The notes under the pieces are model-generated. The model had not been told where the DNA came from and made no database searches. It worked only from the letters and a program-made list of their open reading frames with translations. Positions 13,268 through 27,333 of a DNA stretch of 64,000 nt are shown piece by piece; the first letter of the stretch is position 1; every line of letters starts with the position of its first letter. The position numbers were made by a program, and so were the translations under genes. The stretch lies in contig OZ252100.1 in NCBI GenBank assembly GCA_965248435.1, forward strand, positions 5,280,001 to 5,344,000, read 5' to 3'. The DNA is from Candidatus Latescibacterota bacterium (GTDB taxonomy: Bacteria; Latescibacterota; UBA2968; GCA-2709665).

Positions 13268-14680
13268 ATGAAGCGTAAAGCGCAGCGTCCCTCTGCAAGT
13301 GTTTTGGTTGTCGACCCCGATGAAGCGACCAGTTCCGCCATTCAGCGGTTGCTGAGTGCCGATAACCATCGTGTTCGAATCGCGCGCTCCGGAGAAGAAG
13401 GTCTTGAACTGTGCGCCGAGGAGTCGCCCTCTCTCGTCCTCCTGGACATAAATCTTCCCGGAATTGACGGCCTGGAAACCCTGCGGCGGATAAAGGAGAT
13501 GGGGAAGGATTGCGCTGTCGTCATGGTCACGGCTTATGAGTCTGCCTCTACCGTGGTGGGGGCCATGAAGCTGGGCGCAGAGGACTATATTACCAAGCCG
13601 CTTCCGATGGAAGAGCTCCGGGTCCTCGTGGACAAGCTGGTCGGGCAACGTCAACATTACAGACATTCGACGGGCAGAGGTCTGGGAGAGATGGTCGGTG
13701 ACAGTGCTCCGATGCGGCAAGTCTATGACCTGATACGGCGAATTGCGAAGGCCTCGGTAACGGTGCTGATTACAGGGGAAAGCGGGACAGGCAAGGAGGT
13801 GGTCGCGCGGGCGATCCATCAGAACAGCGAACGTCAATCGCTGCCTTTTCTCTCGGTGAGTTGTGCCTCCATTCCTGGAAGTCTGTTGGAGGCCGAGCTG
13901 TTCGGCTATGAAAGAGGTGCGTTTACCGACGCAAAGGCCCGAAAGAAGGGGCTCATCGAAGTCGCCGGAGAAGGCACGCTCCTGCTGGATGAGATCGGGC
14001 TCATGCCCGTCGATCTGCAGGGCAAGCTGCTCAGCGTGCTCGAAACGCGCAGATTTCGCAGGCTTGGCGGGACAGGAGAGTTGTCAGCGCCCGCACGCTT
14101 TGTCGCGGCCACGAACGCGAACTTGGAGGAGGCGGTTAGAGCTGGCGAGTTTCGTGAGGATCTATACTATAGACTGAACGTGATCCCCATTCATCTTCCC
14201 CCTTTGCGAGAACGAGGGAAAGACATCCTCCTTTTGGCTCAGCAGTTTCTCAGAGAGTGCAGCCATCGACACGGCCTGCCGTTACGTACGCTGTCGCCTG
14301 AGTCCCAGACGTTGATGATGTCCTATGCCTGGCCTGGAAATGTCCGCGAGTTGAAGAACGTGATCGAGCGGGCCGTCCTGTTGACTGATGAAGCGGTGGT
14401 AGAACCGTCCGGCCTGGCAATAAACAGACGAGGTCAGGAAGACCTGGAGGGAAGCCCGATCGAGGTTTCGGACGCGGGCATCATTCAGGTCTCTTTTCCC
14501 CCCTGGGGAATTCCCCTGGAGGATCTTGAGCGGCAGGTGATCGAAGAGGCCCTGATTCACACAGAGGGGAACATCTCTCAGGCCGCCAGACTCCTCCACA
14601 TCAGCCGCTATGCGCTCCGCTACAGGATGCAGAAACACGGGATCCCGTTTCCTGAGGAGGGACATCAGGTAGGCGTGTAG
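13268..14680 (+). CDS. Sigma54-dependent response regulator (REC-AAA+-Fis HTH, NtrC/AtoC type)
   Basis: LLDINLPG receiver, [32 protein letters not shown]. Confidence 0.95.
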   Translation: MKRKAQRPSASVLVVDPDEATSSAIQRLLSADNHRVRIARSGEEGLELCAEESPSLVLLDINLPGIDGLETLRRIKEMGKDCAVVMVTAYESASTVVGAMKLGAEDYITKPLPMEELRVLVDKLVGQRQHYRHSTGRGLGEMVGDSAPMRQVYDLIRRIAKASVTVLITGESGTGKEVVARAIHQNSERQSLPFLSVSCASIPGSLLEAELFGYERGAFTDAKARKKGLIEVAGEGTLLLDEIGLMPVDLQGKLLSVLETRRFRRLGGTGELSAPARFVAATNANLEEAVRAGEFREDLYYRLNVIPIHLPPLRERGKDILLLAQQFLRECSHRHGLPLRTLSPESQTLMMSYAWPGNVRELKNVIERAVLLTDEAVVEPSGLAINRRGQEDLEGSPIEVSDAGIIQVSFPPWGIPLEDLERQVIEEALIHTEGNISQAARLLHISRYALRYRMQKHGIPFPEEGHQVGV

Positions 14681-14695
14681 TTACACAGCAGGGAG

Positions 14696-14735
14696 AAAAA
14701 CCGGATGTCCGGAATCAAAGGACATCCGGTTTTTT
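14696..14735 (+). terminator. Intrinsic terminator-like hairpin
   Basis: AAAAACCGGATGTCC-N9-GGACATCCGGTTTTTT directly after the regulator. Confidence 0.7.
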
Positions 14736-14796
14736 GTGCCGTGAGTTATCTATGCACAATGGTTTGGGCGATTTAATCGTGAAGACTGTTGAGAAG

Positions 14797-14963
14797 TATA
14801 TGTGTTATATAACACATATACTATCGGAAACTCATGTCTATTCAGGTCGTCCATATATTGATATAATTAATTATTATTATGCATATTTAATAGAAATTAG
14901 CGTTACCATAGCAAAGCCCGATCCTGAAGATTTGTAAGAATATATGTGTGATATAGCACATAT
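14797..14963. promoter_or_regulatory. Twin palindromic enhancer-like sites (UAS candidates)
   Basis: ATATGTG-N8-CACATAT at 14798 and 14942 (144 bp apart); the first is within a perfect 24-bp palindrome 14797-14820. Confidence 0.6.
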
Positions 14964-15106
14964 CCATCATACGGTATCGCTGAAGCCAGGTGAAGGCTTG
15001 ACGGATATCTCAAAGTTTCCCAAAAGGTTCGATTATACTGGCAGAGAGACTGTTACGAATCCAACGGGATGGGTACCCTCGTTGATTTACCTCAAAACTT
15101 GGGTTC

Positions 15107-15122
15107 GGGCACAAAGTTTGCC
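15107..15122 (+). promoter_or_regulatory. Sigma54 (-24/-12) promoter candidate
   Basis: GGGCACAAAGTTTGCC with GG-N10-GC spacing, about 145 bp downstream of the second palindrome. Confidence 0.6.
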
Positions 15123-15503
15123 TAGTGTCATCCTCATTCAAAAGCCACGATAGCGGTTTCGGCACAAGACTATGCGCGTTTATATAGGCTGTTGGACGCA
15201 CACCAACGCATTCCTAGCACACACAACGAAAAAGGCAGGTCGGGGCAAAATTCGCGCGGCGCAGATTGCGGTTTGAAGGGTTCATTGCTATCCTATGAGT
15301 AAGGAGGTTCATCCGAAATCATGTAGCCAAAATCCACCTTTGGAATTGGGTTTACCGGCCTGAATTGCGTCCCGGACTCGAGCCAGTGGATGAACAATGC
15401 TAGCCAGATGAGGGCACATAGGGACTGCCCCGAAAGATGTAAGACATTGCCCTGACAGAATTCCCCAATGGATGTTTTCCAACTCCCCAGGAGGTTTTAA
15501 GTC

Positions 15504-16229
15504 ATGAGGTACTGCAAGCACGGCCTGAGCAGGTATATCCTTTACGGCGTTATCTCAGGAATGAGTCTGTTGCTGTTGACCGCGTGCGCGGAACTTACGC
15601 CTTCTCCGCTTTCGCCACAGCAGACAGCCCAACTCGATCAGGCTGCGCTAAGCAGTTCCGGTTCCGTCAGTTTTGTTTTCTCCCCCGGTTCCCCTGATCC
15701 ATCGAGGGCATCGATGCCGGCAGGCAAGCTCGCTGACACGAAGACCGAATCCAGGACGGCCTCGGGGAAGATCACACCGAGACGTGGTGGAAAACTTCGG
15801 GTCAAATTCGATCGACGCGACGACGATGGCGACGATGATGATGGCGACGACGATGATCGTGATGACGACGGCGTTCGAGTCAAAAGTGCGACCTTCGTGG
15901 TGAAACGGGGTTCGATAGAGGAAGCGCACAGGATCAGAATGAGAGTCACTTCAGGGTCTACCCTTGATGACGTGTCGGTGGAATTCACGCCTTCAGGTCT
16001 CTCGTTCGATCCGCCCGCAAGACTCACGATTATCCTTGTCGGCGAGCTGGATGAGGAGGACCTCGAGAACCTCCACGTTTGGCACATCGAAGGGGACAAG
16101 GCCACCGAAGTACCGGTCAAGATTTCGTCTGACGATGATGAATGGGAACTTGTCATAGAAGTGCCCGGATTCTCTTGGTACGATTTGGGCGGGGATGAAG
16201 GGTGTGGTTGGGTTGGATTCTGTTACTGA
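15504..16229 (+). CDS. Lipoprotein with ZU5-like domain, Asp-rich loop and Cys-containing C-terminal tail
   Basis: Lipobox LTAC; GKI...GGKL, FTPSGLSFDPPARLTI and VPGFSWY match the ZU5 pattern; AGGAGG RBS upstream. Confidence 0.7.
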   Translation: MRYCKHGLSRYILYGVISGMSLLLLTACAELTPSPLSPQQTAQLDQAALSSSGSVSFVFSPGSPDPSRASMPAGKLADTKTESRTASGKITPRRGGKLRVKFDRRDDDGDDDDGDDDDRDDDGVRVKSATFVVKRGSIEEAHRIRMRVTSGSTLDDVSVEFTPSGLSFDPPARLTIILVGELDEEDLENLHVWHIEGDKATEVPVKISSDDDEWELVIEVPGFSWYDLGGDEGCGWVGFCY

Positions 16230-16277: not shown

Positions 16278-17468
16278 GTGAAAGAATTGCAGATTTCAAC
16301 CATTCAAGCCTTGATCGAGAGACTCTCTGAATTCCGGAGGGAGGAGGAGGTTGACGACCTCCTTCAGAGTATTGTTTCGGAAGCGGCTCCAACGGAGCAT
16401 CATCTTCGACAGATTGAACAGGTTTTGGAAACCTTTGCAGGGTTGGCGGGGGCGGAGCAGCAGGATGCACCCGATCTCTTGCTTACCCTGGGTCGGACCT
16501 ACGAACGGTTGTCACACCTCGAAAAGGCACGTGAAACCTATGAGAAGGCCCTTAATCTGGCCGAAGGTCGCGATGAGCCGGCGTTCGTGGCGATTTTGCA
16601 TTGTCGACTCGGGAGAGTGTTATCCCGACAAGACAGCTGGGATGGGGCCCTAGGTCATCTCGATCTTAGCGAGAACGCGTTTCGTGAACTGGACGACGAA
16701 GGTGGATTGGCCAGAGTGGCGATAAATCGGGGTGTCGTCTTTCACGAGCGTGGGGATTACGACAGAGCAGCGGAACTCTACAGCGAGGCCCTGGATCTTG
16801 CTCGGAAAACTGGAGACAGAAAGATCGTGGCGAACGCCAGCAACAACCTCGCGGTACTAGCGACCATTCGAGGCGATTTGAGCGATGCCGTGGCCCAGTA
16901 TCAGGCCTGCCTGTCCGTCTCCGACCAGCTTTCAGACCAGCGTGTGAAGGCCCGCATCTATTACAATCTGGGCATGACGTACGTGGCTATGAATGACTGG
17001 AACGGAGCAACAGACTGTTATGAACGGTGTCTGGAGGTTGCACAGGAAGCTGGTTTGGTAGATGTCACGGCAAATGTTTACCGTTGCAGGGCGGAGCTAC
17101 TGCTCGAGTTAGGTGATAGCTCGATGGCCGCAACCTGTTGTGCCCGTGCCCTGGAGATTTACAGGGAAACCGGGGACAGACTCAGGGAGGCGGATGCCTA
17201 TAGGTGTCTGGGCAGGGTATTTACGCTAAAGCGGCAATGGAGCGTGGCTGATAGCCTTTTTCAGCACAGCTTGCGTCTGAATGAAGAATATCAACATCCC
17301 CTGGGAGTTGCCGAAGCACGGAGGGATCAGGGGAAGATGCAGATGGCCAGGAACCGCAAGACAGACGCTCGGACGTCTTTCGAAGTGGCCCTCTCCGACT
17401 TCCGTGGGTTGGGTGTGCAGGCGTCGGTCAGAGAAGTCGAGGGTCTACTCGGGACACTTGACAACTAG
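16278..17468 (+). CDS. Stand-alone TPR protein
   Basis: About 40-aa helical repeats (NRG, NNLA, YNLG, LGR). Confidence 0.9.
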   Translation: MKELQISTIQALIERLSEFRREEEVDDLLQSIVSEAAPTEHHLRQIEQVLETFAGLAGAEQQDAPDLLLTLGRTYERLSHLEKARETYEKALNLAEGRDEPAFVAILHCRLGRVLSRQDSWDGALGHLDLSENAFRELDDEGGLARVAINRGVVFHERGDYDRAAELYSEALDLARKTGDRKIVANASNNLAVLATIRGDLSDAVAQYQACLSVSDQLSDQRVKARIYYNLGMTYVAMNDWNGATDCYERCLEVAQEAGLVDVTANVYRCRAELLLELGDSSMAATCCARALEIYRETGDRLREADAYRCLGRVFTLKRQWSVADSLFQHSLRLNEEYQHPLGVAEARRDQGKMQMARNRKTDARTSFEVALSDFRGLGVQASVREVEGLLGTLDN

Positions 17469-17496
17469 CGAGTTTGCGTTTCGTAGCTTTTCTTAG

Positions 17497-17518
17497 AAAG
17501 CGGCCTACCGGCCGCTTT
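17497..17518 (+). terminator. Intra-cluster terminator-like hairpin
   Basis: AAAGCGGCC-TACC-GGCCGCTTT followed by ATTT. Confidence 0.55.
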
Positions 17519-17572
17519 ATTTGCATTGGTTCGGTCTTTCATTTACCAAACCAACTCGTCAGCGAGAAGCTT

Positions 17573-20500
17573 ATGGTGAATGGTGTATTGACTGGAGAAA
17601 AAATCGGGCAGTATGAGGTCCGAGAAAGAATCGGCCAGGGCGCGATGGGCACGGTCTACCGTGCCTGCGATACATCGCTGCAGCGAGAGGTGGCAATCAA
17701 GGTTCTTTCCACGATTGCTTCGCCGACGCCGAGGGAAGTCGAACGATTCTACCGAGAGGCGCGTGCTGCCGCGGGACTGTCTCATCCAAACGTAGTTTCT
17801 GTACACCAAATCGGGGAACACAACGGGGCTTACTACTTCGTTATGGAGCTCTGTGAGGGTGATTCCTTGCGAGAGCTGGTCCGGTCCGGAAAAAGGATGC
17901 CGTGGCGAAAGGGCCTGGACGTCGCGGTCCAGGTGTGCCGGGCTCTCGAGGCGGCCCACGGTCGGGACCTTCTTCACCGGGACATCAAGCCGGACAACGT
18001 CTGGCTGCTCTCGGACGGGCTTGTAAAGGTCCTGGACTTCGGGATCGTCCGCTTTTCGGCCGCGCAGACCCTTACGCAGGAAGGGGACGCGCTCGGGACC
18101 CCGGAGTATATGTCACCCGAGCAGATCCTGGGCGAAGAGCTGGATGCCAGATGCGACGTCTACGCTGTCGGGATTCTGATGTACGAGCTGTTTACAGGCC
18201 ATCCACCGTTTACCGGACCCAACCCGGTAACGATCATCTACAAGCAGATGGAGGAAGACCCCACACCGCCCGGCCAACTCTCCGGAGATCTGCCGATCGC
18301 CCTGGAGAGAATCATCCTGAAGGCGATCTCCAAGGATCGGGCTGAGCGCTATCCGTCCGCTGCCCGGATGCGTGAGGAGATGGAGGCACTACTGGAAGGC
18401 CGGGAAGCGGCGGACGTAGAAACAGGAGAACTTCCGGAAGAAAGGGCCAAGAAGACCGGCATTCGATTTGAATGCCGGCTGGTCGGGCGAGAAGACGAAC
18501 TGGGGTTGCTGAAACAGGCCGTGGATCGTCTTGATTCGGAGGCCGGGGGCTGCGTCCTGATCGGGGGGGAGGCGGGCATCGGGAAGACGCGGCTGGCCGG
18601 AGAGGCCATGGCCTATGCCCGGCGGAAGGGCGCTATGGTCTTTCAGGGATCGTGCCTCTACAGCGATGGACCCGACCCATATGCGCCCTTCATCCAGGCC
18701 CTGGAGGAGGCGCTGACGGCCGGCGACGAGGATGGGCAGAAACGGTTGCTCGCCTTCATTCGAGATGAGGCCCCGGAACTCCGAGAGCTCACTTCGCGGT
18801 TGATGACGGCAATAAACACCCGGCTGACCGGGAACCCGTTCGAATCCACGGAAACAGGGGTCGTCTCCAGGGAGCGTCTGTTCGAGGCGGTTTCGCAGAC
18901 GCTCTTGTTTCTTTCTGGCGAAAGACCGGTCGTGCTGCTCCTGGACGATCTCCAATGGGCGGACAGCGGCACCCTGCAGCTTCTACACTATGTCTTGCGC
19001 TACGCCTCCGAGCGGCGTCTCCTCATACTGGGGACGGTCCGTTCGGAGGACCTGCTCCCCGACAGGGAGGGAGAGGCACATCCCGTCGCTGACGCGCTGC
19101 AGCGGATGAACACGGAAGGTCTTATCCAGAAGGTGGAGCTCAGTGGGCTCGACCATCGCGGCGTCAGCCTGATGGCGAGGTTCATCTTTCGGCGGGCCCT
19201 GTTTTCTTCCGGGTTTCGAGCTTCGCTCTACAAGGAAACGGGCGGGAATCCGCTCTTCGTCCTAGAGGTCCTCAGGCTTCTTCGGGACGAGGGGATCATC
19301 TATGAGCGGAAGGGCATATGGCGTGAGCGGCGTGAGATAACGAGTGAGGATATTCCGGATCGGGTCTATGACGTCGTCGTTCGGCGAATCGAAAGGCTCG
19401 CGGAGAACCAGCGGGAGCTTCTGCAGCTTGCCGCGGTAGCAGGCGAGAGTTTCGGTTCAACGATGCTTTCCAGCATCTCAGGGGAAGAACGGGTCCCCGT
19501 CCTCCGGAAACTGGACCGTATGGAGCGGAAACATCAGCTTCTGCGTTCTGATGGGGAGGCTTACACCTTCAGCCACCCCAAGATCAGGGAGATCCTTTAC
19601 GAAGAAATCTCGGACGAACTGAGGCAGGAATACCACCTCATTTCCGGGAAATATTTGGAAGACCAGGCCGGGAAGGGCGCGAGAATCCCGGTTGGAGATC
19701 TTGCACGCCACTTCTTTCACGGGGGTGTGCCCGAAAAGGCCCTACCCTACCTCATTCGCGCTGGAGATCAGGCCACTCGCATGTTCGCTTTCAGAGAAGC
19801 GCTGGATCTCTACAGGTGGGCGTCTCAGTCGCTTACCTCGCGAAAACAATCACCGGAAACAATCAGGCTTAGTGCTTCGCTGCAATTTAGACTCGGCGGA
19901 GTATGTAAAAGATTAGGGGAAATTGAGGCGGCCCTCGATTACTTAACCTGCGCCGAAAACCTGGCACAGGGCGTGGCTGATCACAGGCTGATGGGGGAAG
20001 CCCAACTTGCCAAGGGGCAGATTCACTTCCGCTCAGGAAACTACGAGCTGGCGACTCAGCAGTACCAAGAATCCGCGAACCATTTCAGATTGGCGGGTGA
20101 TCTGAAGTCCGTCTGTTCAGTGCTTGTCAGTGCCGCTAATATCCCTTTTGAACAAGGAAAGTGGAGCAGTGTAGAAGCGTACTATACTCGGGCACTTGAG
20201 ATTGCTAGAGAATCCAGAGACCGACGCGAGATTGCCAAGATAAACATGAACCTGGGAATTATGGCGAGTATTCGCGGGAACGGGGAACGGGCACTCAAGC
20301 ACTACGAGAAAAGCAGACGAACTTTCGAGAAGCTGAAGGATTGGCAGAACCTGGCCAAGGTCTCCGTGAACGAAGGGTGGTTCTACGCAGGAAGGAAGGA
20401 CTGGCCCCGCGCCCAGCAAGCCTACAACGATGCCCTCTCGATCTGTAAGAAGACACGTAATATCGCGTCTGAGGCGAAGTGCTTCCTGAATCTTGCTGAA

Positions 20501-20887
20501 GTGATGTTAGAAACCCACGACCTCAAGGGTAGTAAACGCGCCTGCTTGAGGGCCCTGGAGATTTTCGATAAGATGGACAATAAGCTGCCGACCGCAGAAG
20601 TTTACAAGACCCTCGGGCAGGTAGCGAGAATCGAGCGTAAATGGGAAGAGGCCCGTACCTATTTCGAGAAAAGCATCTCGATAGGCGAATCTTTAAGAAG
20701 CCCGCAATCCGGAGGGGCTCACCTGGAATATTCCCGGATGCTCAAGGACATGGGCGACTTGAAATCCGCCGAGGAAGAGGCTGAACACTCAGTCTTCTGG
20801 TATGAAAAGATGGGAGCGAAGGAGGAGTTGAAGCTGGCAGCGACCCTGAAGAGGGAAGTCCAGGCCCTTCAAATTGCCTCGAATTGA
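17573..20887 (+). CDS. Hanks Ser/Thr kinase - STAND (AAA_16-type) ATPase - TPR protein
   Basis: GQGAMG, VAIK, HRDIKPDN, DFG, GTPEYMSPE; Walker A GEAGIGKT, Walker B LLLDDLQWAD, GGNP; C-terminal TPRs. ATG 17573 preferred over TTG 17474. Confidence 0.92.
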   Translation: MVNGVLTGEKIGQYEVRERIGQGAMGTVYRACDTSLQREVAIKVLSTIASPTPREVERFYREARAAAGLSHPNVVSVHQIGEHNGAYYFVMELCEGDSLRELVRSGKRMPWRKGLDVAVQVCRALEAAHGRDLLHRDIKPDNVWLLSDGLVKVLDFGIVRFSAAQTLTQEGDALGTPEYMSPEQILGEELDARCDVYAVGILMYELFTGHPPFTGPNPVTIIYKQMEEDPTPPGQLSGDLPIALERIILKAISKDRAERYPSAARMREEMEALLEGREAADVETGELPEERAKKTGIRFECRLVGREDELGLLKQAVDRLDSEAGGCVLIGGEAGIGKTRLAGEAMAYARRKGAMVFQGSCLYSDGPDPYAPFIQALEEALTAGDEDGQKRLLAFIRDEAPELRELTSRLMTAINTRLTGNPFESTETGVVSRERLFEAVSQTLLFLSGERPVVLLLDDLQWADSGTLQLLHYVLRYASERRLLILGTVRSEDLLPDREGEAHPVADALQRMNTEGLIQKVELSGLDHRGVSLMARFIFRRALFSSGFRASLYKETGGNPLFVLEVLRLLRDEGIIYERKGIWRERREITSEDIPDRVYDVVVRRIERLAENQRELLQLAAVAGESFGSTMLSSISGEERVPVLRKLDRMERKHQLLRSDGEAYTFSHPKIREILYEEISDELRQEYHLISGKYLEDQAGKGARIPVGDLARHFFHGGVPEKALPYLIRAGDQATRMFAFREALDLYRWASQSLTSRKQSPETIRLSASLQFRLGGVCKRLGEIEAALDYLTCAENLAQGVADHRLMGEAQLAKGQIHFRSGNYELATQQYQESANHFRLAGDLKSVCSVLVSAANIPFEQGKWSSVEAYYTRALEIARESRDRREIAKINMNLGIMASIRGNGERALKHYEKSRRTFEKLKDWQNLAKVSVNEGWFYAGRKDWPRAQQAYNDALSICKKTRNIASEAKCFLNLAEVMLETHDLKGSKRACLRALEIFDKMDNKLPTAEVYKTLGQVARIERKWEEARTYFEKSISIGESLRSPQSGGAHLEYSRMLKDMGDLKSAEEEAEHSVFWYEKMGAKEELKLAATLKREVQALQIASN

Positions 20888-20960: not shown

Positions 20961-22013
20961 CCGAGTTCAATAAGGAAGTGCAACACTTAGGGTAGCAACT
21001 GTCCTATCCTAAGTGTATGGGAAACAATTACAAGCATCTTACGATAGACGAACGCGAGCAGATTGCGCTTTGTCGAGCCACTGGTGCAAGCCTTAGAGAT
21101 ATTGCCAAGGCCCTTGACCGGAGCGCCAGCACGATTTCAAGAGAGTTGAAACGTAATCCGTCCCCGATAGCTGAGAGTTACTCGGGCCTCCAGGCTCACA
21201 GAAGGGCTGAGAAACGTAAGCGGGAGGCCGGCAAGCGGAAACGGCTGAAGAATCCGGTTATCCGGCGATATGTCGAGACCAAACTCAAGCAAGGATGGTC
21301 TCCCGAGTTGATCGCTGGGAGGCTTCCCGAGGAGCGTCCGAGCGCGGGTATCAGCCACGAAGCCATCTACCAGTATATCTACGATCCAAAGGTGCACAAG
21401 CAGCGGGATCTGGTTGCTTGCTTATCCCGAGCTCACAAAAAACGAAAGCCGCGGTGGCATACCCGAAAACACCGGGAAAGCCACATTCCAGGCCGTATTT
21501 CGATCGATCGACGTCCCCGTTACATCGAAAAACGGAAACAACCTGGCCACTGGGAATCCGACACCATCATCTCTCGAGAGAGCAAACAGGCCGTTGGCGC
21601 TTGTCTTGAGCGATCGTCGAGATACCTACACCTGGCTAAGCTGGCAAAGAACGGACCCTCGGAGGTCGCCGAAGCGATTAATCGACGCCTTGGGCGACAT
21701 CCTCCCCACATGAGGAAGAGCATCACATATGACAACGGATCCGAAAACGGCCAACATCAACGGGTCAACGAGGTGCTTGGCACCAAATCCTATTTCTGCA
21801 AACCGTTCCACAGCTGGGAGCGAGGCGCTGTGGAAAACGCTATCGGTCTGGTCCGCAGATACCTCCCCAAGAAGACAGACTTCTCAAAGGTCAGCAAACA
21901 CGAGTTAAAGAAAATTCAGAACCGGATCAACAACCGACCAAGAAAATGTCTTAACTTCAAAACACCAGCTGAAGTCTTCAAGTCCAAGTGTTGCACTTAG
22001 TCATTGAATCCAG
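20961..22013 (+). mobile_element. IS30-family insertion sequence
   Basis: 28-bp imperfect IRs 20961-20988 / 21986-22013 (22/28 match) flanking the transposase. Confidence 0.9.
21017..22000 (+). CDS. IS30-family transposase
   Basis: HTH STISRELKRN, GHWESD, TYDNGSE, WERGAVEN, NNRPRKCL. Confidence 0.95.
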   Translation: MGNNYKHLTIDEREQIALCRATGASLRDIAKALDRSASTISRELKRNPSPIAESYSGLQAHRRAEKRKREAGKRKRLKNPVIRRYVETKLKQGWSPELIAGRLPEERPSAGISHEAIYQYIYDPKVHKQRDLVACLSRAHKKRKPRWHTRKHRESHIPGRISIDRRPRYIEKRKQPGHWESDTIISRESKQAVGACLERSSRYLHLAKLAKNGPSEVAEAINRRLGRHPPHMRKSITYDNGSENGQHQRVNEVLGTKSYFCKPFHSWERGAVENAIGLVRRYLPKKTDFSKVSKHELKKIQNRINNRPRKCLNFKTPAEVFKSKCCT

Positions 22014-22036: not shown

Positions 22037-22981
22037 ATGAACGAAGTTGATGCGCTTCGGCTGGAGCGGACCGCCCTCCTGGATGAACTCGAAACGATCT
22101 ACCGTCAGGTCGAGGTGGAGTTCTACGCCCGGGGGCGCGAACAGGAGATTACTTACCAGGAGCTGAGAGAGCGAAACAAGGAGCTCCAGAGACGGCTGGA
22201 CGAGCTGCAGGAGACGCAGCGCATGCTGATCCGCTCTGAGCGGCTTGCGGCCATGGGTGAGATGGCTGCGGCGATTGTGCACGAAATTCGGAATCCCCTG
22301 ACAGTCATCCTCGTGAGAACCGAAATGATGCAGGAGCACCGGGACCGTTCGGCGCAGAATCTGGAAATGATTCTAAGATCGGCGGAATACCTCAAAAAGC
22401 TGACCGAGAACGTACTCCACTTCTCCCGCGCCCAGATGGGGGATGCCCGGTCTCTCGACCTCAACGAGGTCGTGTTTGAGCTCGAGGCGTTCGTGAAGCC
22501 GATCGTCAGAAACGTGGAGATGCAGCTGGAGGTCGATCCTGAAATTCCCAAGGTCCTGGCCGATCCGAGCCAGGTCGAGCAGGTCCTGATGAATCTGGTC
22601 CTCAACGCCCTGGACGCCGTTGGATCGAATGGTCAAGTCACGCTCACAACCGGCAGGGGCAGTGTCGAGGAAACGGTGAAGCAAGAGATCGAGGCCAACC
22701 GACCACACAAACTGGCGATCGAGATGCGTGAAAGCGGTCTCGCGGGTGATTTCGCCTACGTCGAGGTCCGTGACAGGGGGCCGGGCATCAGGCCGGGAGA
22801 TCTGGACCACCTGTTCGAGGCGTTTTTTACGACTAAGGAGACGGGGAAGGGGACGGGCCTCGGACTCTCGATCGTCCGCACAATCGTCGCAGAATGGGGT
22901 GGGAATGTCCTTGTTGCCTCTACGGAAGGCGAGGGTACAAGCTTCAAGGTCTTCCTGCCCTGTGTCCGCGAAACTGCGTGA
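22037..22981 (+). CDS. Cytoplasmic sensor histidine kinase with N-terminal coiled coil
   Basis: H-box HEIRNPL, N-box NLVLNA, DRGPGI, FFTTK, GTGLGL; no TM segment. Confidence 0.93.
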   Translation: MNEVDALRLERTALLDELETIYRQVEVEFYARGREQEITYQELRERNKELQRRLDELQETQRMLIRSERLAAMGEMAAAIVHEIRNPLTVILVRTEMMQEHRDRSAQNLEMILRSAEYLKKLTENVLHFSRAQMGDARSLDLNEVVFELEAFVKPIVRNVEMQLEVDPEIPKVLADPSQVEQVLMNLVLNALDAVGSNGQVTLTTGRGSVEETVKQEIEANRPHKLAIEMRESGLAGDFAYVEVRDRGPGIRPGDLDHLFEAFFTTKETGKGTGLGLSIVRTIVAEWGGNVLVASTEGEGTSFKVFLPCVRETA

Positions 22982-23041
22982 GCAACGAGGGTGTAGTCCC
23001 CCGGTGACGCAGACTCCGACCTATTTCGCAGAAGGCTGAAG

Positions 23042-23356
23042 ATGCACGATACATACCCACAAGGTCTTACGTGCAGCATATGCAGCGCCAGCTACCAAGT
23101 CGGAGATCGCTACTGCCCGCAGTGTGGTGAACGGTGCTCCTCCGCCTACGCGCTGGAAGGGATGAGCACGCACAGATCCTTGAATATCCTTGAAATTCAG
23201 TACAGGCTTGGCATGGTCTACTTCAGGAAAGGCGACTATGTAAGGGCTGTCGCTGTCTGGGAAAAGGTCAAGAAGGGGCGTCCTCGCGACAGCAGATTGG
23301 ATGGTATACTGGATGATGCCAGAAGCCGTCTCCAGGAATCCGAAAGGGTTAGTTGA
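23042..23356 (+). CDS. Zinc-ribbon + single TPR protein
   Basis: CSIC...CPQCG followed by YRLGMVYFRKGDY TPR. Confidence 0.8.
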   Translation: MHDTYPQGLTCSICSASYQVGDRYCPQCGERCSSAYALEGMSTHRSLNILEIQYRLGMVYFRKGDYVRAVAVWEKVKKGRPRDSRLDGILDDARSRLQESERVS

Positions 23357-23357
23357 G

Positions 23358-23735
23358 ATGAACTGTGTTTCGTGTGGACGTCGAAACGGGGAAGATGGAC
23401 GGTTCTGCACGGCCTGCGGGTCGTGCCTTTTGGAGAATGGTTTGGTCGCGCACCTCACCTGGGGCGAAGGCACGGCACAGAAGGAGTATCTCATCTCCGA
23501 AAAGGCGCGCTGTCTGGGCCGGGATGCGGAAGCCGACGTCATTCTTGACGACGATCAGGTCTCCAACCTGCATACCCGGATAATGCTGAACGGGGGTAAA
23601 TTCAAGATTGAGGACCTGGGCAGCCGGAACGGCACCTACGTGAATGGACAGAGGTGTGTGGATGATGAGGAGTTAGAGAACGGTGATTTAATCAAGATTG
23701 GGAGGACCATCATAAAATTTGTGATTTGTGGCTAA
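23358..23735 (+). CDS. Zinc-ribbon + FHA domain protein
   Basis: CVSC...CTACG; FHA motifs GR, VSNLH, DLGSRNGTYVNG; ATG 23358. Confidence 0.9.
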   Translation: MNCVSCGRRNGEDGRFCTACGSCLLENGLVAHLTWGEGTAQKEYLISEKARCLGRDAEADVILDDDQVSNLHTRIMLNGGKFKIEDLGSRNGTYVNGQRCVDDEELENGDLIKIGRTIIKFVICG

Positions 23736-23789: not shown

Positions 23790-25013
23790 CTAATTCCGCT
23801 GTATCATTTGCAGTTTGGTGCGCTCAGTTTTCTCATCGAGGATTTTCTGGGTAACAAGGGCATCATAGTGCGCGCCCAACCTTTGGAAACCTTTTCGAGC
23901 TGTTTCCAAGAGGCTCGAGGCTGCTTCAATCTCTTTTTGTTCAGCGTAGAATACTCCAAGTTCGCGCTGCGCTTCGGCCTCCCCTAAGGGATCTTTGAAC
24001 TGTTGATAAAGGCGCAGGCTCTGCTCCAGGAGGCCCCGTGCCGTTGACCAGTCGCCCTTGTGTGTCAAAAGTCGTCCCAGAAATTTATAGACTTCCGCAA
24101 TGCCGAGAGAATAGTTTGTCTCTCGAAAAATATCGAGTGCCCTTGCGCATAAAGCCGCACCCATTGTATACTCTCCCATTTCTATGTATACAGCTCCTTT
24201 GTTCTCGTAGTTCAGCGCGACCGGGTGCATGTCTCCTCGTTCAAGGTTGATCTCAAGTGCCCTTTCAAAGGCCTCAAGGGCATCGTTCCATCTGTTTTCC
24301 TGCCTGTAGCACATTCCCAGGTTGTGGTAAATCTGTGCGACACCTCTAACGTTCCGCATTTGTTCGTGTAAGGCCAGGGCGTTCCGCAGGTACCCTTTAG
24401 CCTCATCAAAATCCCCACGTATGGTGCCAAGGATTCCGAGGTTCATGGTGACGTCAGCAATAATTGATGTAAGGTTAAACTGCTCCGCAGTCTCCAATGC
24501 TTGCAGGTAAGTAAGCTCCGCCGCAGCATGGTCCCCGCATTTCAGCTTTACGTTTGCCTGGAGAACTTTGCATCGTGTGTAGCCTTCATTGTCGTTCAAG
24601 GACGAAAAAATTTCAGCACTTCGTCGTAAATGTGCCTTCGCCTCTTCCCACCTGGAATGCTTGATCAGGATCGTGGCGATCTTGCGAAGTAGTGTCGCTT
24701 CTGCTGATCGATCATTCAATTGCTTTGCTAGAAGAAGTGCTTCCTCGTTGACGGAAAGCGCCTGCTCATAACAGCTCAAGGTGCGATAAGACTCGCCGAT
24801 ATTCATCAAGGAATTGAGGGTTTCAGACCGGTCCTGACTGCTCCGCAGCGCTATTTCCCTGTGGGTGCTGAGCACCTGATCAACCTTTTTGATCGCCTCT
24901 GCCGCCGAAACGTTGTCCTGAAGGGCTACAGCGAGCAGGGACTCGATGCGCGCCTTCCATTCAGGTTCGGACGGGTCAGGTACAGTCCGTTTGTTATCTT
25001 CATCCTGGTTCAA
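23790..25013 (-). CDS. Stand-alone TPR protein, paralog of 16278-17468
   Basis: TPRs with NLGILGTIRGD, HNLG, CARALDIF matching the other copy. Confidence 0.9.
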   Translation of the reverse strand: MNQDEDNKRTVPDPSEPEWKARIESLLAVALQDNVSAAEAIKKVDQVLSTHREIALRSSQDRSETLNSLMNIGESYRTLSCYEQALSVNEEALLLAKQLNDRSAEATLLRKIATILIKHSRWEEAKAHLRRSAEIFSSLNDNEGYTRCKVLQANVKLKCGDHAAAELTYLQALETAEQFNLTSIIADVTMNLGILGTIRGDFDEAKGYLRNALALHEQMRNVRGVAQIYHNLGMCYRQENRWNDALEAFERALEINLERGDMHPVALNYENKGAVYIEMGEYTMGAALCARALDIFRETNYSLGIAEVYKFLGRLLTHKGDWSTARGLLEQSLRLYQQFKDPLGEAEAQRELGVFYAEQKEIEAASSLLETARKGFQRLGAHYDALVTQKILDEKTERTKLQMIQRN

Positions 25014-26044
25014 GATTGGTTCTCCTCAGAACTCTCCAAGTTGCTAACTCGGCGTCTGTATTCACTTGCCTGGATACCGTGTTCGGCCATTCTTACCTGA
25101 AAATACTGCCTCCCGATTCCGCTTTCCCGTGCAGCCCGTGAGACGTTGCCGCCTGCGCAGAGAAGTGCCCGATGCAGGTACTCTCGCGTGAACCACTCGA
25201 GGCTCCGTCTGCGCGCCTCCTTATAAGGATGAGCGAAGATCTCTTCGGGGGAGTCGTCGTCTCTTTCGCCAGATATGTGACCCGGCAGGTCCTCCGGGCA
25301 GATCGATTCTCCCTCGGCGAGAAGGAGTGCCGCGGAGATCGCGTGGGAAAGCTCTCTGACATTTCCCGGCCAGGGGTAGCTGATAAGCTGTCTCAAAGCC
25401 TCAGGAGTCAAGGGTCGTTCTTTGAAACCTTCATCTCTGCATTTGTCCTTGAAATGTTCGATCAGGATCGGAATGTCACTGCGACGATCCCGAAGCGACG
25501 GCAGGTGGATGTGGAGCACATTCAGTCTGTAGAAAAGGTCCTGTCGGAATCGCCCTTCGAGCACCTCGCGGTCGAGGTCTCGGTTTGTCGCTGCAATCAG
25601 TCTTACATCCGATCTTCTCACCCGGGTTTCGCCAACCGGCCTGAATTCCCCCTCCTGGACGAAGCGGAGCAGTTGGAGCTGAAGGTCAGGTTGCAGATCT
25701 CCGACTTCGTCCAGTAGCAGCGTCCCTCCATCGGCGTGCTCGACCATTCCACATCGATTGTCCAGGGCGCCTGTGAACGCACCCCGCAGGTGGCCGAACA
25801 GTTCGCTTCGCGCTATCTCTCGGGATAAGACGCCACAATCTACGACGACGAACGGGCCTGCTGCCCGTGAACTCGCTGCGTGAATTGCCCCGGCAAGAAG
25901 CTCCTTCCCTGTTCCGGTTTCTCCAGTAATCAAGACCGGGAGATCACACTTGGCTGCCAGAATGGCCAATCGCTGGACTTCCAGAATGGCTGGATGGCAA
26001 CCCACGATTGGCCTGTTGGAAGTAGACTCTAAGCTGACTGGCAT
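25010..26044 (-). CDS. Sigma54 enhancer-binding protein lacking an N-terminal regulatory domain
   Basis: Start at ATG 26044 (MPVSLES); [33 protein letters not shown]. Confidence 0.9.
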   Translation of the reverse strand: MPVSLESTSNRPIVGCHPAILEVQRLAILAAKCDLPVLITGETGTGKELLAGAIHAASSRAAGPFVVVDCGVLSREIARSELFGHLRGAFTGALDNRCGMVEHADGGTLLLDEVGDLQPDLQLQLLRFVQEGEFRPVGETRVRRSDVRLIAATNRDLDREVLEGRFRQDLFYRLNVLHIHLPSLRDRRSDIPILIEHFKDKCRDEGFKERPLTPEALRQLISYPWPGNVRELSHAISAALLLAEGESICPEDLPGHISGERDDDSPEEIFAHPYKEARRRSLEWFTREYLHRALLCAGGNVSRAARESGIGRQYFQVRMAEHGIQASEYRRRVSNLESSEENQS

Positions 26045-26099
26045 CGTCACGACCCCTTTAGCCCTCGAGCTTTCAAGGTTAACACTCTTGCCATTCCAT

Positions 26100-26115
26100 A
26101 ACAAGAAGGGTGCCA
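26100..26115 (-). promoter_or_regulatory. Sigma54 (-24/-12) promoter candidate
   Basis: TGGCACCCTTCTTGTT on the minus strand, 56 bp before ATG 26044 (TTGT variant of TTGC). Confidence 0.6.
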
Positions 26116-26227
26116 GTAAGTGAAAAAGAGGCAGGTGGAATTGGGCACGTCTATTTAAGTATTTGATCGTAAGATGTTTATTGAAATCATTCGAACGAAA
26201 GCCGGATGTCCGATTCGCATCTTGCGA

Positions 26228-26271
26228 TAAAATAAGAAAGGGGCAAATCACCCGATCGGGTAATCTGCCCC
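26228..26271 (-). terminator. Intrinsic terminator
   Basis: GGGGCAGATTACCCG-AT-CGGGTGATTTGCCCC then TTTCTTATTTT on the minus strand. Confidence 0.75.
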
Positions 26272-26313
26272 TCGTCATTCGACCTTGTTGACTTTAGTGC
26301 GCTTTCATCCGGA

Positions 26314-27300
26314 TTATGTCTGATTGTTCAGGCGGTGTTTCTTCAACCGATACCTGAGTGCATCCCTGGACACGTGAAGCAGCTGGGCCGCCCTTGTAAC
26401 GTTGCCCTTGGCCTCTCTGATTGCTTCCTCGATGAGTCTCCGCTCAACGCCTCCAGGGAGATGCCCCAGGGCGGAAAACTAATTCGGATTTCTCCCAGTT
26501 CGTTCACATCGAGGGAGGCCTGACGCTTCTGCTCTGCAAGTTCCCTTTCTTCTTTTCCGATCGCCAGGTCATCTACGCCTACCAAGTCATTTCGACTCAA
26601 CAACACAACCCGTTCGATCACGTTCCGCAGTTCGCGGACGTTACCGGGCCAGGAATAGTTGCGCATCCATTGCTCTGCACCTTTCGAGAAGCAGTACTCC
26701 TGCTTCTGGTAGCGTAAGGAGGATGTCCTCACCGCGCTGGCGGAGAGGAGGCAGTGGAATGCGGACGACATTCAGTCGGTAGTAGAGGTCTTTACGAAAA
26801 CGACCTTCAGAAACGGCTCGCTCCAGGTCTTCATTCGTAGCGGCAATGAATCTCACATCCGAACCGATTTCGTTTGTTCCACCCAGCCTTCGGAACGTTT
26901 GTGTTTCCAGCACAGTAAGAAGCTTGGCCTGCAGTTCCGTCGGCATCAGGCCGATTTCGTCCAGGAAGAGCGAGCCCCCCTCAGCAGTTTCGAGTAGCCC
27001 CTTCTTGGATATCTTGGCGTCCGTGAATGCCCCTTTTTCGTAGCCGAACAGCTCGGCCTCCAGCAGGGTGGAAGGAATTGCAGTACAGCTTACGGCCACA
27101 AACGGATGGCTTGCGCGGTTTCCCTGGTGATGGATCTGACGCGCAACCATCTCCTTGCCGGTGCCGCTTTCTCCCGTGATCAACAGCGTGGCCGGTGTGC
27201 TGGCCACACGATCCATCAGGTGAAATACCTCCTGAAGAACCGGGCTTTCACCGACGATGCCGTCCAGGGGTCCCAGGCCGTTGGCCCCGGTCGCCTTCTG
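26314..27300 (-). pseudogene. Degraded sigma54 enhancer-binding protein, paralog of 13268-14680
   Basis: No REC domain; deletion plus frameshift near 26715; second frameshift near 26450 restores VERRLIEEA...[13 protein letters not shown]; shares the SFPPWGI.LE linker. Confidence 0.85.
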
Positions 27301-27333
27301 ACTGATGGCAATTTGGGATGGGGATGGAGTGAG

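Follow-up and report, generated by a model that had tools for sequence, protein, structure and literature searches.

A stretch of 64,000 nucleotides (nt) from contig OZ252100.1 of a Candidatus Latescibacterota bacterium (assembly GCA_965248435.1), which is the window of this report, carries a gene for a lipoprotein of 241 amino acids (aa). We read its product as an exported, lipid-anchored module of the ZU5/GAIN superfamily that cleaves itself at F223|S224 with His194 as the base, and that forms, with its gene probably transcribed from a sigma-54 promoter, the exported arm of a conserved signalling cassette. Taken as a whole, this reading has in our estimate a probability of about 0.6. It draws on the fold of the domain, on the conservation of a Phe-Ser pair at the edge of that fold and on an exchange between two histidine positions, each of which serves in a self-cleaving animal protein.

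The mature protein of ~22 kDa is simple in design, a ZU5-type domain alone on a predicted N-terminal lipid anchor and with no C-terminal anchor. The hydrophobic stretch in front of L-T-A-C is the only such segment in the chain. Bacterial lipoproteins, as substrates of Lgt and Lsp, have the lipobox consensus [LVI][ASTVI][GAS]C, and L-T-A-C fits it. The lipobox had been picked out in the first-pass annotation, which was made from the letters of this DNA, and it stands: in the family alignment of 125 sequences, numbered here by the window protein, the lipobox column holds Cys in 120. The C-terminus, translated from the open reading frame (ORF), is EVPGF-SWYDLGGDEGCGWVGFCY, and the piece beginning at S224 has 18 residues with a C-x5-C spacing (Cys234 and Cys240), all as the same annotation had described. 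A sorting signal of the PGF-CTERM, PEP-CTERM or LPXTG kind was considered for VPGFS and rejected, because the motif is followed by no hydrophobic segment or transmembrane helix; NCBIfam gave no match to such a signal, and the family tails are short and mostly acidic.

The ZU5-type fold

AlphaFold2, run with the family alignment, predicts an all-beta domain with a per-residue confidence score (pLDDT) above 90 over approximately residues 80-225, and in the full-length model a disordered tail with pLDDT below 50 for residues 229-241. A model of the domain only (residues 80-241, alignment of 32 rows) has a mean pLDDT of 86.4 and a predicted template-modelling score (pTM) of 0.81, with the tail again of low confidence; in it strands 213-222 and 225-229 flank F223-S224, which sits at the sandwich's C-terminal edge. 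When the domain-only model was compared with the PDB by Foldseek, ranks 1-7 were all ZU5 domains, at probabilities of 0.95-1.00 and TMq of 0.41-0.49. The top ZU5 matches were ankyrin-B (6m3q_E and 4d8o), UNC5b (3g5b) and erythroid ankyrin, also called ankyrin-R (3kbu, 3ud2 and 3kbt). In the same search 3f59_C came at rank 22 with a TMt of 0.51, and the GAIN domain of BAI3 (4dlo_B) had a probability of 0.96. The whole chain gave weaker matches, the top probabilities being those of the ZO-1 ZU5 domain (0.89) and the GPR56 GAIN domain (0.82).

Sequence profiles point to the same domain by way of the relatives of the window protein. PF00791 (ZU5) is the most frequent weak Pfam match in the family (8/125, best E 0.0028), and six-frame matches to it fall on family genes in three related genomes. 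Ten members were chosen, HFS-type proteins and some others, and four of them match ZU5, two with scores of 26.6 and 23.4 bits against a curated cut-off of 21 bits; these two match the family profile at E 4.4e-22 and 1.8e-28. As the window protein itself has no match to PF00791 while homologues pass the cut-off, its membership rests on transitive homology through the family profile. By that homology and by the predicted fold, its assignment to the ZU5/GPS/Nup98 superfamily is supported. According to the available text of Zhang et al. 2012 (PMC3482391), the ZU5, GPS and Nup98 domains were united there as one superfamily. The ZU5-like fold proposed in the first pass is therefore retained, on the strength of the seven leading structures and the two homologues above the Pfam threshold. 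In the ESM Atlas the nearest named cluster contains ZU5 in 50% of its members (score 0.86), which we treat only as a lead. A search of the PDB with the full-length family profile found lipoprotein signal peptides only, and a marginal match of the domain-only profile to the 'conserved domain protein' 3sz6/3sik (E 0.009) was treated as chance.

The predicted cut site and the two histidine positions

Conservation in the family is concentrated on the end of the sandwich and on a few residues inside it. F168 and F223 are invariant in the 125 sequences, and C28, M146, G151, F161, P163, G165, A172, L174, H194, P221, G222, S224 and Y226 are conserved in at least 90%. Around the predicted cut, residue 224 is Ser in 124 sequences and Thr in one, and is therefore always a nucleophile; P221 is found in 113, G222 in 117 and Y226 in 118. 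H194 is present in 124 of the 125, and the single exception carries H-F-T.

The histidines were compared among 32 members derived from loci. Seven have H-F-S or H-F-T, with His at position -2 from the nucleophile, and none of these has the distal His; the other 25 have no His at -2 and all have the distal one. Every sequence examined (32/32) therefore has exactly one of the two. At position 194 the seven H-type members show L (twice), V, C, Y, W or Q. The window protein is of the distal kind, with Gly at -2 and His194 standing 30 residues before Ser224. On a tree built without the two His columns, both traits change at least four times each, always together, giving three independent contrasts on well-supported branches and four on all branches, one of which parts close relatives (branch lengths 0.23 and 0.20).

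Both arrangements have counterparts among cleaving domains. PIDD, Nup98, FIIND, GAIN and MAIN domains are described as cut at the position that F223-S224 takes in the fold (PMC3210808; 10.1101/2020.08.13.250241; 10.64898/2026.05.12.724683). PIDD and Nup98 use H-F-S; according to the same account CARD8 has S-F|S, its -2 residue is nearly dispensable, and cleavage requires His270, which stands 27 residues ahead of the Ser (PMC3210808). In the crystal structure reported for the FIIND of rat NLRP1, the equivalent residue His942 adjoins Ser969 and is needed for cleavage (10.1101/2020.08.13.250241). Self-cleaving ZU5, GAIN and MAIN domains carry in the last turn of the sandwich either H-x-S/T or x-F-S, the latter together with a distal His, and a retained strand comes next. 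The window protein, which has no His at -2, shows the second form of this signature, with strand 225-229 after the site. Each sequence examined keeps exactly one of the two histidines, and both arrangements occur in animal ZU5 domains that cleave; self-cleavage at F223|S224 is therefore likely. By analogy with FIIND, His194 may act as the catalytic base and lie close to Ser224.

Alternatively, the domain does not cleave: VPGFSxY would be no more than a turn in the structure of a binding module, on an envelope lipoprotein, such as an adaptor or adhesin, that is expressed under control of the cassette. ZU5 domains that do not cleave, those of ankyrin and UNC5b, make up many of the best fold matches, and position -2 of the window protein is not the canonical His. 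However, a structural turn needs no invariant nucleophile (Ser or Thr in 125/125), nor exactly one His at either of two positions through four coupled changes, and UNC5b is reported to have Leu where the cleaving proteins have Phe (PMC3210808). We regard this alternative as unlikely. A caveat of the earlier annotation, that Gly in place of His might leave a purely structural motif, is largely removed: the Gly at -2 is real, but the alignment of homologues at this position, which that annotation had proposed as a check, brought to light divergent syntenic homologues with HFS or HFT and the distal H194 in the rest, and the structural part of the caveat loses most of its force.

Several observations weigh against self-cleavage or against other parts of the reading that we prefer. 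Many ZU5 domains do not cleave, those of ankyrin, UNC5b and ZO-1 among them. Neither the whole chain nor the domain had a Foldseek match at E <= 1e-3, and template-modelling scores were ~0.5; the similarity to ZU5 is therefore remote but consistent. PF00791 does not match the window protein or its genome even at E <= 10, Pfam and NCBIfam gave no match on the lipoprotein, and the family profiles found no ZU5 chain among the PDB sequences. A sign test on the exchange of histidines gives p = 0.25, as three to four independent events are too few for formal significance. As for expression, the sigma-54-type site of the window gene itself is weak (9/12 consensus positions) and lies 396 nt upstream, and 24 of 37 family genes have no site at the level of at least 10/12.

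A possible course of events

In the reading that we prefer, the protein would be exported and anchored by an N-terminal lipid, with the ZU5/GAIN-superfamily sandwich as its only folded module. Ser224 would attack the preceding peptide bond in an N-to-O acyl shift, followed by hydrolysis; the buried Phe223 would be the anchor for strain and His194 the base, in the distal-His geometry of the FIIND of NLRP1 and CARD8. The C-terminal piece of 18 residues would at first stay bound after the cut, held by residues 225-229 as one of the edge strands of the sandwich, while the variable acidic and aromatic tail, with two Cys in this protein, would hang free. Expression would be driven from a sigma-54 promoter under the adjacent regulator, making the lipoprotein at least an output of the cassette. 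The cleavage, the part played by His194, the regulation, and the holding and subsequent freeing of the tail are inferences.

The tail

Tail lengths were counted from the Ser in 128 family proteins: 9 residues in 26, 16 in 14, 18 in 11 and 7 in 11. The strand that follows the predicted cut, S-x-Y-x-L-G, is conserved; beyond it the sequences vary, are for the most part acidic and frequently have W, Y, F or P as the last residue. Within one genome, paralogues tend to share an ending, and the endings differ between genomes. The ends of syntenic homologues include SRYAWA, SRYSIDD and SRYSLGGGR, and many stop 6-9 residues past the Phe. Any Cys is found in 13 of the 128 tails and two or more in only six, and on these sequences the Cys ring is therefore peculiar to the window protein and is not a feature of the family. 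The 18-aa ringed peptide described in the first-pass annotation is not supported as a property of the family: besides the rarity of the Cys pair, the extended tail is absent from many syntenic homologues, an absence that the annotation itself had set beforehand as a refutation. One clade (loci L056, L057, L058, L060 and L062) has short tails that are basic rather than acidic (e.g. ...GLRRN), a trait confounded with phylogeny.

The annotation had further suggested that cleavage frees an 18-aa disulfide-ringed, pheromone-like ligand for the neighbouring tetratricopeptide repeat (TPR) proteins, in the manner of RRNPP systems. The arrangement of genes is of the right kind, in that the gene directly after a family gene encodes a TPR protein in 17 of 25 loci and a kinase-like protein with TPRs in another five. 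The tails are variable, with endings shared within a genome and different between genomes, and many are acidic with an aromatic or Pro C-terminus, the type of peptide ligand that TPR domains bind. Set against this, the lipoprotein is exported whereas its partners have no signal peptide or transmembrane segment, and the cassette holds no importer, which is topologically awkward. The commonest tail has only 9 residues including the Ser, several syntenic homologues stop 6-9 residues past the Phe, and the pair of Cys is rare. The 396-aa TPR protein has no output domain, and sigma-54 promoters fit an output role for the lipoprotein. On balance, we think this ligand model improbable. Co-folding of the TPR protein with the ZU5 domain and tail scored 0.00, which is no answer and counts neither way.

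The cassette and its promoters

The features of the locus are collected in Table 1. Cassettes were compared at 25 distinct loci, the window and 24 from related genomes, with profiles of the window neighbours; three duplicates were dropped, and many of the loci end at contig ends. A TPR protein of ~400-470 aa directly adjoins the family gene in 17, and in a further five the adjoining gene encodes a relative, of ~690-810 aa, of the kinase-STAND-TPR protein. Fourteen loci have a response regulator or activator of the sigma-54 type, 12 a Ser/Thr-kinase-AAA_16-TPR protein of ~1100 aa (two of these truncated where the sequence examined stops) and nine a small zinc-ribbon/FHA protein, and a soluble histidine kinase recurs nearby. 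The lipoprotein gene stands in the cassette in one to three copies. The lipoprotein is the only product with a signal peptide or transmembrane segment, and the earlier caveat that an exported peptide would need a route back to cytoplasmic TPR proteins is upheld as far as the cassette goes: it contains no importer gene, a statement that covers the cassette only, Opp elsewhere in the genome not having been searched for.

Table 1. Coordinates of the lipoprotein gene, its parts and its neighbours in the window
Feature	Position	Strand	Remarks
Sigma-54-dependent response regulator (receiver + AAA+ + helix-turn-helix)	13268..14680	+	upstream partner
Weak sigma-54-type -24/-12 site (GGCAC-N5-TTGC core)	15107..15122	+	9/12 consensus positions; 396 nt 5' of start codon
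Ribosome-binding site AGGAGG	15489..15494	+	9 nt 5' of ATG; read directly
ZU5-type lipoprotein gene	15504..16229	+	241 aa, ATG start, stop codon included; ORF list
Lipoprotein signal peptide, lipobox L-T-A-C (residues 25-28)	15504..15587	+	Cys28 = predicted lipidated residue 1 of mature protein
Linker, residues 29-79	15588..15740	+	strand 55-61 packs on domain (full-length model)
ZU5-type beta-sandwich, residues 80-229	15741..16190	+	domain model, Foldseek, PF00791 on homologues
Asp-rich low-complexity loop, residues 103-123	15810..15872	+	between two strands; low pLDDT; length varies among homologues
His194 codon, putative general base; distal His of the NLRP1/CARD8 FIIND kind	16083..16085	+	conservation, FIIND analogy
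Phe223-Ser224, predicted scissile bond	16170..16175	+	F223 = 16170-16172, S224 = 16173-16175; conservation
18-aa post-site piece: strand WYDLG (225-229), then variable tail	16173..16226	+	ORF translation, family tails, model
Tail Cys pair, C234 and C240 codons	16203-16205; 16221-16223	+	
396-aa all-TPR protein	16278..17468	+	48 nt 3' of lipoprotein gene; no signal peptide or transmembrane segment
Ser/Thr kinase - AAA_16 (STAND) - TPR protein, 1137 aa, soluble	17474..20887	+	
IS30-like transposase (HTH_38 + rve)	21017..22000	+	inside cassette
Soluble histidine kinase (HisKA + HATPase_c)	22037..22981	+	
Small zinc-ribbon + FHA-like protein	23301..23735	+	homologue of G005 132-aa protein

Promoter sequences point to sigma-54 control of the family. 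Of 37 family genes, 13 have a site that matches at least 10 of 12 sigma-54 consensus positions in the interval -300..+100, typically at about -85; ~0.8 would be expected from a background of 45 sites in 791,280 nt (0.023 per 400 nt), and a stricter core pattern agrees with this enrichment. The family is, on this evidence, very probably sigma-54 dependent. Sites of the 9/12 type are at chance level over the window (26 found, 26 expected), and for the window gene itself sigma-54 dependence is plausible but weak. This context suits a lipoprotein that is an output of the cassette no less than one that is an input.

The lipoprotein might also be unconnected, as regards signalling, with the TPR proteins. 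The small TPR protein would then control the TPR-fused kinase by TPR-TPR contact, and the lipoprotein would be co-expressed cargo. By phmmer the 396-aa TPR protein and the TPR portion of the kinase are homologues (E 5e-32), all the proteins concerned are soluble, and there is a precedent in Vibrio vulnificus, where RcbA is reported to act on RcbB by TPR-TPR contact (PMC12282931). What such control leaves unexplained is why a lipoprotein gene, often in two or three copies, is kept directly 5' of the TPR gene across the phylum. We hold this explanation possible and rather doubtful.

Some further features of the neighbourhood were seen. The ~690-810 aa kinase-STAND-like neighbour replaces the 400-aa TPR protein in the one clade of loci with basic tails. 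In the window, the IS30-like transposase parts the kinase-STAND and histidine kinase genes, which are adjacent or close in related loci. On the minus strand, 23790-26278 holds a second paralogous pair that includes no gene for a lipoprotein. Its members are a TPR protein of 407 aa, which matches the first one at E 3e-58, and a sigma-54 activator of 422 aa without a receiver domain. Next to it, at 26317-27333 on the same strand, a third sigma-54 activator is spread over three frames that match residues 139-324, 323-421 and 419-459 of the intact regulator, and is a frameshifted pseudogene or an assembly error. A 173-aa ORF at 23021-23542 on the minus strand was rejected as a gene: it has no family match, it is antisense to the FHA gene and the same antisense frame matches in a related locus, which marks it as a shadow ORF. 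The 820-nt spacer at 14681-15503 has no remnant of a family or neighbour gene. Rfam found nothing over the whole window; PADLOC gave no match to the lipoprotein and generic ones to the kinases. A search of sequencing runs for the locus found its DNA in four runs of one study and no RNA run.

Size and spread of the family

The family of ZU5-type lipoproteins is real and unnamed, as judged from its sequences. A full HMMER scan against 1.84 billion metagenomic cluster representatives recovered 196 at E <= 1e-3, 83 at E <= 1e-10 and seven at E <= 1e-30; a word-index search with the single protein recovered only itself. Nearly all members have 190-260 aa and end in [VI]PGFS[R]YSLGG plus 0-35 residues. 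A second search brought no name from the source other than 'hypothetical protein', and no precomputed Pfam domain. Longer fused forms are represented by a single weak match, a beta-helix protein of 1726 aa (E 1.2e-4). The profile matches 26 of 168 genomes of the window's phylum (E <= 1e-5), often with two to five neighbouring copies. The window genome has one copy, and its one relative of the same genus (97% complete) has none. A search for related loci with a narrower alignment gave four, and the named records were metagenome-assembled genomes labelled Candidatus Latescibacterota and Gemmatimonadetes.

Several members depart from the common pattern. Residue 71 (15714-15716), in the family motif RAxKP of the otherwise variable linker, is Lys in 113 of 125 sequences, and the window protein is the sole member with Met. 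Asp-rich inserts inside or before the ZU5 domain, seen also at loci L013 and L058, are of very variable length and reach ~40 residues elsewhere; they may have a part in cation binding. Loci L011/L012 (G004:C1:7930000-7966000) hold five copies in 36 kb, three intact, one N-terminal half and one C-terminal half, interleaved with three TPR genes and several sensor kinases; the copies that retain a C-terminus, which are the three intact ones and the C-terminal fragment, all end in DDEGW(W). At locus L068 (G077:C2:4073121-4073766) the gene is split over two overlapping frames and is probably a pseudogene, with an intact copy elsewhere in that genome.

Comparison with known systems

One close likeness is to the FIIND (ZU5-UPA) of NLRP1 and CARD8, which shares a ZU5-type sandwich, an x-F|S site with a residue other than His at -2, a strand after the cut that is kept in the sheet, and an upstream His that is catalytic in FIIND and predicted to be so here (27 residues away in FIIND and 30 in the lipoprotein). 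FIIND, however, is a cytosolic animal domain with a full UPA and a CARD after it and a function in inflammasomes, whereas the lipoprotein is exported and lipid-anchored and has only 6-38 residues past the site and no UPA. With the HFS-type domains of PIDD1, UNC5CL and the C-terminus of Nup98 it shares the invariant Phe-Ser at the C-terminal edge of the sandwich, and 7 of 32 homologues derived from loci have the exact H-F-S/T. The F-S-[RK]-Y of the family presumably resembles the Nup98 site. The window protein differs from these three in having Gly at -2, and the sequence profiles gave no match to them.

Among bacterial proteins the comparison is with MAIN (Microbial Autoproteolysis INducing) domains. 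These GAIN-like domains, that of Bacillus subtilis YfkN for example, are reported in a preprint by Brogan and Rudner 2026 to cleave at HF|S, with fragments that stay associated; the proteins average 158 kDa, with large N-terminal ectodomains and an anchor C-terminal to the domain, and no link to signalling is drawn in the available text, from which the words 'lipoprotein' and 'ZU5' are absent (10.64898/2026.05.12.724683). An exported beta-sandwich, an HF|S-type site and a tether to the cell envelope are common to MAIN proteins and the lipoprotein, and GAIN is among the fold matches of the latter. The MAIN architecture of signal peptide, large ectodomains, MAIN domain and C-terminal surface anchor is not that of the 241-aa protein, which is a domain of ~22 kDa alone on an N-terminal anchor, in a signalling cassette and in a family with mostly the distal His. 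Since it has almost nothing to shed, unlike MAIN proteins, a role in signalling or switching is more attractive than the release of cargo. The ZU5 autopeptidases of bacterial polymorphic toxins and surface proteins (PMC3482391) are likewise predicted, as self-processing domains of secreted proteins, but they are N-terminal in giant RHS or adhesin proteins, and in the available part of that source neither a stand-alone lipoprotein nor a context of sigma-54, TPR and kinase genes is mentioned.

With RRNPP systems (Rap, NprR, PlcR, PrgX and AimR) the locus has in common a short gene for an exported product beside a soluble TPR protein, and the 396-aa protein has a sub-threshold match to AimR (E 5.8e-4, 19 bits against a cut-off of 70). 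RRNPP precursors are small substrates of Sec or PptAB, cut by external proteases and re-imported by Opp, and their receptors have output domains. The 396-aa protein consists of TPRs throughout and, within the cassette, there is no means of re-import.

Already known, then, are the bacterial ZU5 autopeptidases of secreted giants, predicted in 2012, and HF|S cleavage, shown in the 2026 preprint. Literature searches on bacterial ZU5 autoproteolysis, on ZU5 lipoproteins and on YfkN and GAIN turned up no account of the stand-alone lipoprotein family or its cassette; the supplementary tables of PMC3482391 and of the MAIN preprint may list members. The stand-alone, lipid-anchored ZU5-type family and the signalling cassette that goes with it would, as far as these searches reach, be new.

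Implications

In animals, self-cleaving ZU5 and GAIN modules hold a central place in inflammasomes, in the PIDDosome, in nuclear pores and in adhesion G-protein-coupled receptors. The exchange of histidines in this bacterial family is evolutionary evidence that two catalytic geometries known from animals are interchangeable.

More speculatively, the protein could be a caged-peptide device of diderm bacteria. The self-cut lipoprotein would clamp its own C-terminal peptide as an edge strand, like the Stachel of adhesion G-protein-coupled receptors, until envelope stress, force or a binding partner frees the genome-specific tail. The TPR and STAND-kinase proteins would sense the tail, either directly or once it has been taken up, and the signal would return to the lipoprotein promoter by way of the FHA protein, the histidine kinase and then the sigma-54 regulator. 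We think such a device improbable. If it existed, it would be a self-amplifying peptide circuit unrelated to the RRNPP or acyl-homoserine lactone systems, and a freed tail acting as a signal would be a new kind of peptide communication in bacteria of the Gram-negative type.

The family is a minimal form of the self-cleaving ZU5/GAIN modules, the domain alone on a lipid anchor, and its wiring to a conserved cassette of sigma-54, Ser/Thr-kinase and TPR proteins, in poorly known uncultured phyla, points to signalling.

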